Sequence record: OR424388.1 | Origin: Escherichia phage HEMP5 | Length of the DNA stretch: 64,000 nt | Direction: 5' to 3' (one strand) | In this document: positions 10,139 through 16,481 of the stretch, in pieces | How positions within the stretch are numbered: position 1 is the first letter of the stretch | How the letters are laid out: each line of letters begins with the position of its first letter | Translations under genes and position numbers: made by a program | The notes under the pieces: model-generated | Told to the model about the DNA's origin: nothing | The model's input: the letters and a program-made list of their open reading frames with translations, nothing else | Databases searched by the model: none

Positions 10139-10326
10139 TATTCTTCTACATGCTGTTTACGACCTTTCTTATCAATAAAGGTATATTCAACGAATGTTCC
10201 AATATAGTCTTTATCTACATCATGTGGACTATTAATTGGGCATTTAGTACGGCAAATGCGTTCCCATTGACGAATAATTTCCACTTTGTTTTTAGGATCA
10301 AACGGATGCGGGTAATGTGCTTTCAT
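10114..10326 (-). CDS. small hypothetical protein (70 aa)
   Basis: ORF track. Confidence 0.45.
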   Translation of the reverse strand: MKAHYPHPFDPKNKVEIIRQWERICRTKCPINSPHDVDKDYIGTFVEYTFIDKKGRKQHVEEYCLKVTWL

Positions 10327-10777
10327 AATCCACCACTATTAAATCAATATCAGGAGTAAACATGTCGATTAATTTAGAAACCTTATCCCAATCACCGCCA
10401 GCAATACCACAACCTATGCGTGGAATGTAAATTACTGGTTTAAACAAAAGGGTTTCTGCCTGTAGATTTAATTCTATCATGCAGTTTACTAAAGCACCAT
10501 AATCAAGATTAGGACCTGGTTCGTATTGTGTATACAGGTTATAGCATATACCAAATCCTGTAGGATTATGTTTAAAAACAATAGACATATCACCTAATTT
10601 ATCACGAGAACCGTACTCAGTAGTGGTTTTATCTATTTCTAAAATTTTAGGATAGGCCCTTGCTAATTGACCTGCTACACCTGAACCCATAGTATGAAAG
10701 CAGTTGCACCCATGCGCAATAATATTACCTTGAAGAAATAGGGCGACAATATCGCCCTTGATATATTTTACAATCAT
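10298..10777 (-). CDS. macro-domain protein (ADP-ribose binding/processing fold), 159 aa
   Basis: N-terminal GDIV...GNIIAHGCNCFHTMGSGVAGQLAR resembles macro domain nucleotide-binding motif. Confidence 0.6.
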   Translation of the reverse strand: MIVKYIKGDIVALFLQGNIIAHGCNCFHTMGSGVAGQLARAYPKILEIDKTTTEYGSRDKLGDMSIVFKHNPTGFGICYNLYTQYEPGPNLDYGALVNCMIELNLQAETLLFKPVIYIPRIGCGIAGGDWDKVSKLIDMFTPDIDLIVVDYESTLPASV

Positions 10778-11115
10778 CTAGTACTCAATCCTCGATTATA
10801 AGAATCTACCAAACGGTCAACCATTGAATGACAAGCGGCTTTATCTTTCTCCTCCGCAACTGAACATTCTAAGGTATTCCACTTTTTAGCATATCGTTTT
10901 AATAAAGTATCATTTTTGTATCTGCTTGATTTATCTCTTTCTCCGTCTTTATATGCATATATTAATTTCTGCGCAAATTCAGCTTGGCATGCTTTATTTT
11001 TCCCGCAATAATCCGCGGCAGTACGGTTTACATACTCTCTAATTTCAGTATATGATGTATTTGCTAACGCAGAAAATGAAATTAATCCTATACATAAAAC
11101 CAAAATTTTAGTCAT
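10774..11115 (-). CDS. secreted/periplasmic small protein with signal peptide (113 aa)
   Basis: MTKILVLCIGLISFSALA signal peptide; paired cysteines. Confidence 0.55.
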   Translation of the reverse strand: MTKILVLCIGLISFSALANTSYTEIREYVNRTAADYCGKNKACQAEFAQKLIYAYKDGERDKSSRYKNDTLLKRYAKKWNTLECSVAEEKDKAACHSMVDRLVDSYNRGLSTR

Positions 11116-11653
11116 TTACTATTTCCAGTAGTTTATTATTTTTAAGGTAGTTAGCCTTTTCTAGGACTTCAGAAGCATATTTAGAACCTGCTTTAACATT
11201 CCATCCCGAATTATAAGAGGATATTGCCTTTCTTATATCACCCTTATGTATATTTAACCAATAAGAAAGTTCAATGTACGCCCAGGAAGCTGAATTGGAC
11301 CGTTTATTCAACATTCTTTTTATTTCAGCATCGGTCATATTATAACCAAGTTCCTTAACTCTTGCTCGCATTGTCGGCAAATAATTTTGGAACATTCCGT
11401 AGGCATGATGCTTTGGTTTAGATTTTAAATTAACTCCGGCAGAGCTTTCTTGCCATAAAATAGCAGCCATTATATGACCTAATCCGCTCTTGTGGATATT
11501 TTTGTGTGTTTTATATTTTCCATCCTTAGAAAATTGTTCCCCGAATTGATACGCGTAACGCATGTTATCGAGTTGGACATTACTGAAAGTATGCTCGGAG
11601 CTATGCGCCATCATTGAAATGGCCAATAGACCAGCGAGTAGTGCTTTTCTCAT
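11108..11653 (-). CDS. secreted lytic-transglycosylase-like protein (181 aa)
   Basis: signal peptide MRKALLAGLLAISMMAHS; LWQESSAG catalytic-Glu motif and YNSG motif of SLT-type enzymes. Confidence 0.6.
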   Translation of the reverse strand: MRKALLAGLLAISMMAHSSEHTFSNVQLDNMRYAYQFGEQFSKDGKYKTHKNIHKSGLGHIMAAILWQESSAGVNLKSKPKHHAYGMFQNYLPTMRARVKELGYNMTDAEIKRMLNKRSNSASWAYIELSYWLNIHKGDIRKAISSYNSGWNVKAGSKYASEVLEKANYLKNNKLLEIVND

Positions 11654-11660
11654 GCTTACC

Positions 11661-12122
11661 TCATTGAGTTTTAATTACTGCTTTAGAAGCCTTTCCTGGT
11701 AAACGACGACTGTTAATAATTGCCATCCTGCACTGAAGTGACGGGTCTTTGAACTTCGCATTAGGTTTACAAACTGTAAATCCAAGCCAAAGATTTCCAT
11801 CTGTGATTTCTAAACGTCCAGGACGATATTCAACCCCATCAATAAAATCCTCATTAATGTCAGGACGCGGAGGCATACTTAGGAATTCATTAACTTCTAA
11901 AACATGGTCTTTTATTTTATGGAATAATTCAAAAACATATGTCTCATCAATCTCCCGTTGAATTGCACGATCAAGAAGATGTTGAGAATATTTTAGATGA
12001 AACGATGAGACCCCTGCTGCTTTTGATGCCTCACGAATCTCATTGTTAATTTGACGAAACTCCGACTCAAAGTGACGACGGAGCTTATTTCGACGGATAA
12101 AAACTTCTGTGTTGATAGTCAT
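11661..12122 (-). CDS. regB: RegB site-specific endoribonuclease (153 aa)
   Basis: size and N-terminus MTINTEVFIRRNKLRRHFESEF consistent with remembered T4 RegB; own early promoter. Confidence 0.7.
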   Translation of the reverse strand: MTINTEVFIRRNKLRRHFESEFRQINNEIREASKAAGVSSFHLKYSQHLLDRAIQREIDETYVFELFHKIKDHVLEVNEFLSMPPRPDINEDFIDGVEYRPGRLEITDGNLWLGFTVCKPNAKFKDPSLQCRMAIINSRRLPGKASKAVIKTQ

Positions 12123-12148
12123 GTTATTCTCCTCTTAACTGATAGAAA

Positions 12149-12179
12149 AATTATACCACAGTCAAGAGGAAAAGTAAAC
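12149..12179 (-). promoter_or_regulatory. T4 early-type promoter (GTTTAC ... GGTATAAT)
   Basis: minus-strand GTTTACTTTTCCTCTTGACTGTGGTATAATTTTTC upstream of regB. Confidence 0.45.
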
Positions 12180-12181
12180 AG

Positions 12182-12505
12182 TTATTCTTTAAATCTAATC
12201 AATTTATTCATAGACTTTGAAACTTCTGCACGAACCTCATGTAGGTTTTTAAGCTGTTCAAGACGCTGCTCATAGTAAGCAATTTCATCTTCTTCGAGAC
12301 AGTCCTGTGAATCTTCTTTAAGATAACTCGCATAATCCTGGAAAGCTTTACGAACTACTTCCTGGAAGTCATCAAGACTTTGAATTTTCTTAGGAGCAAC
12401 AGATACACGACGAGGGGCAGCAGTATAATACTCATAACCAAACCCTGCGCTTAATTGAGCCATTAATATTTTTCCTCTGGTTGGAACACAGCACGACAAG
12501 CCCAC
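12182..12505 (-). CDS. hypothetical protein (107 aa)
   Basis: ORF track. Confidence 0.55.
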
Positions 12506-14964: not shown

Positions 14965-14995
14965 AATTATACTATATTAATACTTAAGCGTAAAC
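14965..14995 (-). promoter_or_regulatory. T4 early promoter (GTTTAC -35 / GTATAAT -10)
   Basis: minus-strand GTTTACGCTTAAGTATTAATATAGTATAATTACTC, close match to early promoter consensus. Confidence 0.5.
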
Positions 14996-15060
14996 TGTTT
15001 AAGCTTTACCGCCAGAAATAATTCCAAAGTTGTTAAAATCGTATCCAATATCGTCAACAT

Positions 15061-15162
15061 CTACTTTAGGACTGCACCAAATACGCGTGGTAATTCACGA
15101 TACTCAGCCATAAGATGTTGGTCGGTCAGTTCAGAAACAAGTGTTAAATTGATACGAGTCAT
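15061..15162 (-). pseudogene. denV: denV (endonuclease V, pyrimidine-dimer glycosylase) remnant: first ~31 codons only, then stop
   Basis: manual translation [33 protein letters not shown] matches T4 EndoV N-terminus ([31 protein letters not shown]...) then diverges and terminates. Confidence 0.6.
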
Positions 15163-15186
15163 AATTTCCTCCAAGTAGTTGATGAA

Positions 15187-15219
15187 TGTATAGTATCAAA
15201 ACCCTTGGAGGAAGTAAAC
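15187..15219 (-). promoter_or_regulatory. T4 early-type promoter upstream of denV remnant
   Basis: minus-strand GTTTACTTCCTCCAAGGGTTTTGATACTATACATTC. Confidence 0.4.
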
Positions 15220-15221
15220 AA

Positions 15222-15503
15222 CTATTTTTCTGAAGCGCCTGAAATATATTTTTCAAGACGTTGTTTCATCAGCGAGCCGTTCTTAGCGATTTCTTCCGGT
15301 TTATCGCACATACGCAACAAGGCTTCAAGCTTAACGATATCACTGGTGCGCTCAAATTTGCGAGTATCTATCTTACTAGCAAGTTCAGAAATACGTGCTA
15401 ATAGACTTTCGGCTTCAACCAAAGCTGCACCTAGCTTAGTTGCAAATGTGTCAGTAGCTTCGTTAAGAATAGATTCTGATAAAAATTCACTATATGTTTT
15501 CAT
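15222..15503 (-). CDS. internal (head) protein, IPII-sized (~93 aa) with CTS MKTYSEF
   Basis: track ORF trimmed to CTS Met; ATG overlaps stop of lysozyme e; body homologous to the IP at 23267..23524. Confidence 0.7.
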
Positions 15504-15988
15504 ATATACGCTTTCCAAGTTCCTGTTTTAAATGTTGAGATTACGCGTTTCGCGCGATTAGGTGTCTGACGATACCATTTAGATTGGGCTAGATTTACTG
15601 CTGCTTCATCCCAGCGTTTTTGTTGGAGCATACGTAAAGAATTAGTAAATCCTGCCACGCCGGTTTCTCCCATTTGAAAAACCATATTAATTAATGCACA
15701 GCGGCGAACAGCATCAAGAGAATCATAAACTGGTTTTAATTTAGCATTTCTCAGAATTCCGCGAACAGCAGCATCAACATCCTGATTAAAGAGTTTTTCA
15801 GCCTCATCTTTTGTAATTACACCATTGCAATTACGCCCAATAGCTTTATCTAATTCAGATTTAGCAACACTTAGTGATGGACTTTTAGTAAGCAAATGTC
15901 CAATGCCAATAGTGTAATAGCCTTCTGTGTCTTTATAGATTTTAAGTCTAAGACCTTCATCTATACGTAACATTTCAAATATATTCAT
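15500..15988 (-). CDS. e: endolysin (T4 lysozyme, gene e), 162 aa
   Basis: [35 protein letters not shown]... near-identical to T4 lysozyme over most of its length. Confidence 0.97.
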
Positions 15989-16025
15989 AATACCTCCTAA
16001 GTATTTATAGAAGGTATTTATAAAA

Positions 16026-16481
16026 TTAAAAGAGGTTGTTCATTATTCGGTAAAGTGAAGGACCCATCACATATTGCCACTGAGTACGAGGAATAAGAGC
16101 AAAAGCGTCCATCTCTGGAATCATAACACCATCTTTATTTTCAAAATAAGACTCGCAATGGCAATTTCTAAACATCTCATGCTCTACTGGAATCGTATAA
16201 TAAAATAACTGTAAGTCTTTATTACTAGAATATTTAAATACACCTAGGTCTTCTAGAAGGTCTGGATTATAATTACTAAAACTAGTCTCTTCTAAGCATT
16301 CTCTTCGTGCTGCATCTAATGCGCTTAAATCAGAATTTTCTACACGGCCCTTTGGAATATCCCAGCGGTGTGCCATCATTCCAGGCTTACGAGAACCAGT
16401 AACCCGACCCATAAATAAATCTTTATCTTCTGTCATAAAGATAATACCAGCTGATAGTGTTTTCATTTTAATTTCCTGCAA
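16026..16481 (-). CDS. nudE: Nudix hydrolase (T4 NudE/e.1-like), 151 aa
   Basis: Nudix box region [24 protein letters not shown]; position adjacent to e. Confidence 0.8.

Follow-up and report, generated by a model that had tools for sequence, protein, structure and literature searches.

A T4-type early segment of Escherichia phage HEMP5 encodes a glutamine-type macrodomain protein among accessory genes that are probably independent

Introduction

The DarTG2 system ADP-ribosylates thymidine in DNA, and a phage gene that confers resistance to it has been described in T4. In a T4 transposon screen (HIDEN-SEQ) on a DarTG2 host, tk.4 was the single significant hit. A clean T4 tk.4 knock-out was sensitised to DarTG2, and tk.4 received the name adfM, for anti-DarT factor Macrodomain (2025 preprint, bioRxiv 10.1101/2025.11.20.689424). 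T2 and T4 without the NADAR factor AdfN are still resistant to DarTG2 (PMC11825919). A macrodomain of phage PhiKZ (gp104), also named AdfM, strips DNA of the ADP-ribose added by DarT2, as shown in vitro (PMC13309987). This report concerns the tk.4 homologue of Escherichia phage HEMP5 and the early segment between it and nudE. Both lie in a window of 64,000 nucleotides (sequence record OR424388.1), the window being the whole stretch of DNA that was analysed.

A bacterial macrodomain protein is also relevant. SCO6735 of Streptomyces coelicolor, which has glutamine at position 85, cleaves DarT-made thymidine-ADP-ribose (thymidine-ADPr) on DNA faster than DarG does (PMC9411070). The Q85A and Q85E variants are inactive, SCO6735 rescues E. 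coli from DarT, and a water-based mechanism has been proposed (PMC9411070).

Several other genes of the T4 segment have been described. The glycyl-radical domain match of Vs.6 has been on record since at least 2006 (PMC1524935). According to the 2001 work of Knappe's group, cited in PMC8683613, the T4 protein, Y06I, is activated by the activase of pyruvate formate-lyase (PFL) and reconstitutes oxygen-cleaved PFL. T4 NudE.1 hydrolyses ADP-ribose, Ap3A and flavin adenine dinucleotide (FAD) (Xu et al. 2002, as cited in later work). It also hydrolyses nicotinamide adenine dinucleotide (NAD) and NAD-capped RNA in vitro, and T4 carrying the E64,65Q change in NudE.1 lyses approximately 15 min late with unchanged NAD pools and bulk NAD-caps (bioRxiv 10.1101/2024.04.04.588121). 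Vs.4/Acb2 is a sponge for cyclic oligonucleotides such as cyclic GMP-AMP (cGAMP) and acts against the cyclic-oligonucleotide-based antiphage signalling system (CBASS) (PMC10449767).

Organisation of the segment

Positions 10298-16481 of the window share 97.5% DNA identity with sequenced Tequatroviruses. The span matches 938 phage records, 318 of which cover at least 80% of it. No phage record in the collection reaches 99% identity to the window across 24 kb, which is why the phage is read as a mosaic T4 relative; the window is that of a Tequatrovirus. Gene order across the span is collinear with T4 60922-67490 (tk.4, vs, vs.1, regB, vs.3-vs.8, ip genes, e and nudE). All long open reading frames (ORFs) of 9000-18000 are on the minus strand, and GC content is 32-39%.

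A preliminary description of this DNA had singled out four ORFs, with macro, GrcA-like, P-loop and Nudix calls. All four are present on the minus strand and each call passes a profile test. Their products correspond to T4 Tk.4/AdfM, Vs.6/Y06I, Vs.8 and NudE.1. The ORFs lie at or near the positions first given for them, with two corrections, as the likely starts are ATG 13305 for the GrcA-like gene and ATG 16466 for nudE. These genes are already known; in T4 they bear names and most have been characterised.

The same description had read the four ORFs as a cluster of nucleotide and radical-chemistry enzymes. Gene order and distribution both speak against a cluster. The four genes are interleaved with unrelated ones, namely vs, an SLT-like gene, regB, vs.3, the gene of Vs.4/Acb2, vs.5, vs.7, two internal head protein genes and the lysozyme gene. 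Macro homologues occur in 2777 phage records, GrcA-like genes in 1588 and NudE in 1261, with different spectra of hosts and families, and GrcA-like genes are found in T5-like phages too. Inside the block a single gene has had its allele replaced (macro) and another has been truncated by a deletion (denV). We consider it probable that the segment from tk.4 to nudE consists of about 16 independent small minus-strand genes, assembled as a mosaic and with T4-type functions, and that it is not one system. Each is better regarded as a T4 accessory gene in its own right, already named, than as part of a new nucleotide or radical-chemistry system; two of them, AdfM and Acb2, serve in counter-defence. 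What is new here is modest, namely the glutamine-type active site and cassette behaviour of T4-type AdfM, together with an apparently host-derived patch in vs.6.

The macro protein

The macro ORF matches Pfam PF01661 with an E-value of 5.8e-8 (score 33.1 bits, cut-off 22) and PHROG 335 with 1.6e-71. The macro-domain assignment had been made conditional on such a profile search, which thus bears it out, and the fold agrees. The AlphaFold2 model has a predicted local distance difference test score (pLDDT) of 92.7. Its closest folds in the PDB are TARG1, Poa1p, BT1257, DarG and SCO6735, with template modelling (TM) scores of 0.69-0.76, and the Foldseek probability is 1.00 against TARG1, Poa1p and DarG. 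By sequence, the relatives in the PDB are BT1257 (1.6e-10), yeast Poa1p (1.5e-9), SCO6735 (8.5e-8), MtbDarG (4.8e-5) and TARG1 (0.01). The macro protein is a stand-alone macrodomain of the ALC1-like class, to which TARG1, DarG and SCO6735 belong.

Orthology with T4 Tk.4/AdfM is indicated by the shared locus between tk.3 and vs and by the shared set of invariant residues. Length and the stand-alone macrodomain are also common to both proteins. Among 32 homologues, H22, N25, N80, Y82, T83, Q84, G122, G124 and W130 are invariant; the N-x-Y-T-Q motif is found unchanged in the window protein, T4 Tk.4 and the 30 others. They differ in sequence, with only 58% identity between them, whereas DNA identity in the genes on either side is 95-100%.

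Gln84, the last residue of the motif, aligns with K80 of DarG and K84 of TARG1, that is, with the column of the catalytic lysine. Glutamine is also found at this position in SCO6735 and in BT1257 of Bacteroides, the best PDB sequence relative of the window protein, which differs from both in being phage-encoded and only about 25% identical. Because SCO6735 with Gln85 still cleaves thymidine-ADPr, the T4-type macro protein may be placed functionally next to it, subject to a shorter loop and a transitive alignment that are weighed below. DarG and PhiKZ gp104 share with the window protein the fold class and the proposed substrate, thymidine-ADPr on single-stranded DNA. They differ from it in having an FPTK motif with the catalytic lysine, and PhiKZ AdfM is close to DarG (E 9e-25). 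T4-type AdfM thus stands on a glutamine-type ALC1-like branch, unlike the biochemically studied PhiKZ AdfM, which stands on the lysine-type DarG branch, and its mechanism therefore cannot simply be transferred from DarG.

Membership of the DarG family itself was considered and rejected. The best NCBIfam match of the macro protein is antitoxin_DarG (NF048014), at 27.8 bits against a cut-off of 250 and over profile positions 2-142 of 338. DarG has a C-terminal DarT-binding domain and an adjacent darT. The window protein has no second domain and lacks the lysine, and its neighbours are tk.3 (DUF7202) and vs, with no darT adjacent.

The function of the macro protein had been described as not established. 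The T4 tk.4 knock-out phenotype makes this statement outdated for the T4 orthologue. For the window protein an anti-DarTG2 role is the most likely one, judging from that phenotype and from the fold class. The macro protein would remove DarT2-added ADP-ribose from thymidines of single-stranded phage DNA, so that replication could proceed. Since Gln84 occupies the catalytic-lysine position, as Gln85 does in SCO6735, catalysis is probably water-based: Gln84 would orient the substrate and a positioned water would act, with no lysine involved.

Probable exchange of the macro gene

The divergence of the macro gene was located by sliding DNA comparison with a phage that has the T4 allele. The flanks are 95-100% identical, and identity falls to 42-70% only within the macro ORF, at approximately 10300-10720. 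The first 100 nt or so of the ORF remain 83-88% identical between alleles. Of the 2777 phage records in which a macro homologue occurs, 312 have an allele with 90% or more identity to that of the window and most others are below 60%. The protein clusters grade through 97, 81, 78, 75, 65 and 58% identity. The macro gene looks like a cassette exchanged by recombination with breakpoints at the gene boundaries, as would be expected under conflict. An exchangeable allele suggests that conflict with DarT toxins is ongoing, with possible consequences for the host range of T4-like phages used in therapy.

We regard as unlikely a further proposal, in which the two deeply diverged Tequatrovirus alleles, 58% identical to one another, neutralise different DarT2 variants or other ADP-ribosylating defences, or in which NudE.1 clears the released ADP-ribose in a loose two-step route. 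On this proposal the alleles would differ either in the substrates they accept or in binding the toxin directly and inhibiting it, as SCO6735 and DarG do. If true, it would make T4-type AdfM a glutamine-type, lysine-independent phage eraser of DNA ADP-ribose with an allele-specific host range.

A G+C-rich hairpin with a T-rich tail lies at 10740..10758 on the minus strand, in macro codons 7-13 or so and just downstream of the vs stop codon. Its folding energy is -12.9 kcal/mol (z -3.3), and the homologous site in phage ECML-123-2 is annotated as a rho-independent terminator. The hairpin might reduce transcription running on from vs into the macro gene, and it falls within the 5' part of the macro ORF that is well conserved between alleles.

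The GrcA-like protein

The GrcA-like ORF matches Pfam Gly_radical at 2.9e-18 and TIGR04365 at 3.7e-45. Its score for TIGR04365, 153.3 bits, is below the equivalog cut-off of 170, and its N-terminal half has diverged. The likely start, ATG 13305, lies behind a GAGAGG Shine-Dalgarno sequence and is preferred to TTG 13317. The protein is identical to T4 Vs.6 at 119 of 120 residues. RVSGY is found at residues 92-96, with Gly95 as the radical glycine. Near identity to E. coli GrcA (YfiD) in the radical domain had been noticed before and is confirmed here, as 60 of the 61 C-terminal residues are shared. The N-terminal 59 residues, in contrast, are phage-specific and only faintly GrcA-like. Like the T4 orthologue one residue different from it, the window protein would be a spare part for PFL. 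Gly95 would receive the glycyl radical from the host PFL activase, and the protein would replace the oxygen-cleaved C-terminus of PFL. The repaired host enzyme could then sustain fermentative production of acetyl-CoA and formate during infection.

The similarity to the host extends to DNA. The last 61 codons and the stop codon (12943..13127, minus strand, 185 nt) show 98.9% identity with the grcA of every one of 5426 complete E. coli genomes. Identity starts sharply at the EGGQHLN codons and stops at the stop codon, and GC content is 49% in the patch compared with 34% in the 5' half. The patch is also present in T4 and in a Mosigvirus. The vs.6 copy of a Klebsiella Jiaodavirus is 91% identical to grcA genes of Enterobacteriaceae. 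Copies from Karamvirus, Krischvirus, T5-like phages, an Erwinia phage and an Aeromonas phage are 76-81% identical to any of 81 sampled bacterial grcA genes. Sharply bounded near identity in the T-evens but only 76-81% in distant phages points to an older phage gene that, in the E. coli T-even lineage, recently took up a patch from the host or underwent gene conversion.

NudE.1 and Vs.8

The Nudix call is upheld by a match to Pfam NUDIX (PF00293) at 1.8e-12 and by an RRECLEE box that contains E64 and E65. The window protein is identical to T4 NudE.1 at 148 of 151 residues. By analogy with the T4 enzyme in vitro, it may act as a Nudix pyrophosphatase on ADP-ribose, FAD, Ap3A, NAD and NAD-capped RNA.

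The P-loop call is also sound, since Vs.8 has a Walker A motif (GxxxxGK[ST]) and a Walker B motif (hhhhDE) on a RecA-like (ASCE) fold. The protein is 96% identical to T4 Vs.8 over 180 residues. Its start is at 14179 (or 14209), whereas the annotated T4 protein is longer by 39 residues at the N-terminus. The motifs and the ASCE fold are those of the ATPase domain of the T4 gp17 terminase and of the RecA1 domains of SF2 helicases. Vs.8 differs from both in being a single domain of about 180 residues without a nuclease, a second RecA domain or a partner domain with an arginine finger. An exhaustive profile search of 1.84 billion proteins with Vs.8 returned 50 small relatives and no tie to a known family; these 50 representatives are about 160-180 residues long, and the family forms 27 clusters at 90% identity. 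No curated family was reached, with AAA_14 at 17 bits against a cut-off of 27, no NCBIfam match, and PDB profile E-values of at least 0.057. Vs.8 is a minimal single RecA-like P-loop ATPase confined to T4-like phages.

Alternative readings

Several observations weigh against the assignments made above. The genetics behind the anti-DarTG2 role come from one preprint and from the T4 allele, from which the window allele has diverged considerably. The enzymology of phage AdfM is that of PhiKZ gp104, a lysine-type relative of DarG and not a macrodomain of the T4 (glutamine) type. The SCO6735/BT1257 subclass has a mobile loop five residues longer than in DarG and TARG1; in BT1257 the extra residues follow the glutamine, and the window and T4 proteins lack them. 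The equivalence of Q84 with Q85 of SCO6735 is transitive, through alignments with DarG, TARG1 and BT1257. In NudE.1 of the window, one of the three substitutions relative to T4 replaces a conserved glycine of the Nudix box by serine (G67S in 151-residue numbering, EETGF to EETSF), whereas T4 NudE.1 and the HMD-9 copy both keep Gly67. Substrate evidence for NudE.1 is from T4 in vitro.

The preliminary description had tied the macro and Nudix proteins to Thoeris or other NAD-depleting defences. The two proteins would jointly counter NAD depletion or ADP-ribose signalling, the macrodomain degrading glycocyclic ADP-ribose (gcADPR) or O-acetyl-ADP-ribose (OAADPr) and the Nudix hydrolase clearing ADP-ribose. 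Both folds bind ADP-ribose moieties and NudE.1 hydrolyses ADP-ribose and NAD in vitro. ADP-ribose released by the macrodomain would be a NudE.1 substrate, which makes a two-step route chemically plausible. Nevertheless, the reading is improbable, and no evidence for it was found. The known T4 activity concerns ADP-ribosylation of DNA, as the tk.4 screen hit and knock-out were obtained with DarTG2, which modifies DNA and does not deplete NAD. Phage with catalytically dead NudE.1 have normal NAD pools and NAD-caps. The macro and nudE genes are 5.2 kb apart with about 14 unrelated genes between them, they are distributed differently among phages, and the macro allele has been swapped independently. 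None of the papers retrieved ties the macro protein or NudE.1 to Thoeris. Even less can be said for a co-regulated, operon-like module in which all four genes share a purpose, which appears extremely improbable. The genes do lie on the same strand in the early region, tightly packed with overlapping stop and start codons, but every gene here is packed identically, including those of lysozyme, regB and the internal head proteins. The block is divided by terminator-like hairpins and by promoters annotated in relatives, and it is further broken up by the differing phylogenetic distributions and the single-gene replacement and deletions already described. Terminator-like hairpins are enriched (12 found compared with 4.5 +/- 2.1 expected), two of them at gene borders. 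The promoter scan did not exceed chance (33 found compared with 28.4 +/- 4.3 expected), and no promoter map was drawn.

Two other roles were weighed for the macro protein by itself. A metabolic ADP-ribose-1''-phosphate phosphatase or O-acetyl-ADP-ribose deacetylase with no role in defence has some appeal, as yeast Poa1p, which has the former activity, ranks high in both the sequence and the fold comparison, and the residues mutated in it, H23 and S30, correspond to H22 and T29 of the window protein. The historical annotation is 'A1pp phosphatase' or 'RNase III regulator', and database names such as 'phosphatase' persist, but they derive solely from domain transfer. Against the E. coli-type O-acetyl-ADP-ribose deacetylase the protein scores a negligible 16.7 bits (cut-off 291). 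Reversal of thymidine-ADPr has been proposed as an activity common to the ALC1-like class (PMC9411070). With a DarTG2 phenotype in the T4 orthologue and a hypervariable cassette whose evolution suits conflict better than housekeeping, there is little chance that the protein is purely metabolic. Nor does it seem at all probable that the macro protein erases ADP-ribosylation of protein or RNA by phage Alt, ModA or ModB or by ADP-ribosyltransferase toxins of the host. Arginine is the residue that the Alt and Mod enzymes modify. TARG1 and SCO6735 do cleave ADP-ribose from protein as well, but the linkages shown are to Glu or Asp, and SCO6735 favours DNA over a protein substrate (PMC9411070). The presence of three ADP-ribosyltransferases in T4-type phages (PMC10468400) favours such an eraser; the sole recorded phenotype is with DarTG2. 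Removal of ADP-ribose from phage DNA thus stays the preferred role for the macro protein.

Other genes of the segment

The features of the segment are collected in Table 1. A search of 9500-17500 with Rfam gave no RNA family at E <= 0.1.

Table 1. Genes and other features between the macro gene and nudE, in window coordinates
Feature	Position	Strand	Basis
tk.4/adfM homologue, stand-alone macrodomain protein, 159 aa	10298..10777	-	Pfam Macro, T4 orthology
vs (valyl-tRNA synthetase modifier) homologue	10774..11115	-	position and annotation in T4 and HMD-9
vs.1, SLT-like transglycosylase-domain protein	11108..11653	-	Pfam SLT 4.8e-5, synteny
regB endoribonuclease	11661..12122	-	Pfam REGB_T4 2e-68
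vs.3 homologue	12182..12463	-	PHROG 2037 6.1e-40, ATG start checked
vs.4 = Acb2	12463..12729	-	Pfam Acb2_Tad1_hairpin (PF24729) 5.9e-19
ORF at the vs.5 position, 73 aa	12722..12943	-	PHROG 1986 7.2e-44
vs.6/Y06I, GrcA-like autonomous glycyl-radical cofactor, 120 aa	12943..13305	-	Gly_radical, TIGR04365, T4 Vs.6 identity
vs.7 homologue, 109 aa	13314..13643	-	PHROG 2049 4.7e-54, start checked
vs.8, small single-domain P-loop (RecA1/terminase-like) ATPase	13640..14179	-	Walker motifs, fold, T4 Vs.8 identity
Terminator-like hairpin right after the ipIII stop	14337..14354	-	-11.6 kcal/mol, z -3.6
ipIII internal head protein	14357..14935	-	92% identical to T4 IpIII, PHROG 5341
denV remnant, 33 codons and stop	15061..15162	-	tblastn: DenV aa 1-33 only; translation
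Internal head protein, 93 aa, MKTYxEF N-terminus	15222..15503	-	PHROG 3499 1.4e-46
e, T4-type lysozyme	15500..15988	-	Pfam Phage_lysozyme 2.1e-13, synteny
nudE.1 Nudix hydrolase	16026..16466	-	Pfam NUDIX 1.8e-12, T4 identity, start codon

Vs.4 is identical to T4 Vs.4 at 85 of 88 residues (97%) and has the Acb2/Tad1 hairpin domain. Its gene lies between the macro and GrcA-like genes and was missing from the list in the preliminary description.

The denV gene encodes endonuclease V, which acts in UV repair. In the window it is cut to 33 codons followed by a stop by a deletion of about 516 bp. Alignment with phage Lutter places the junction near 15070, at a GGACT microhomology, and tblastn with DenV found only amino acids 1-33 in the window. 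The deletion also takes out one small internal head protein gene and part of another that are present in relatives. The junction is contiguous in none of the ten best-matching records, all ten of which are split across it. In T4, denV lies between vs.8 and ipII, and in the nearest relatives it lies between ip genes. A spacer of 147 nt between vs.8 and the ipIII stop codon, within 14180-14356, sits where T4 has denV.

The content and order of the ip locus are unlike those of T4. Identification of the internal head protein beside lysozyme as T4 IpII was rejected, as the two share only the N-terminal 11 residues, which are the capsid-targeting peptide (MKTYxEFxxE). On the other side of the segment, two small minus-strand genes lie between tk and the macro gene at 9911-10326, with matches to Pfam Phage_zn_bind (1.2e-28) and DUF7202 (1.8e-37).

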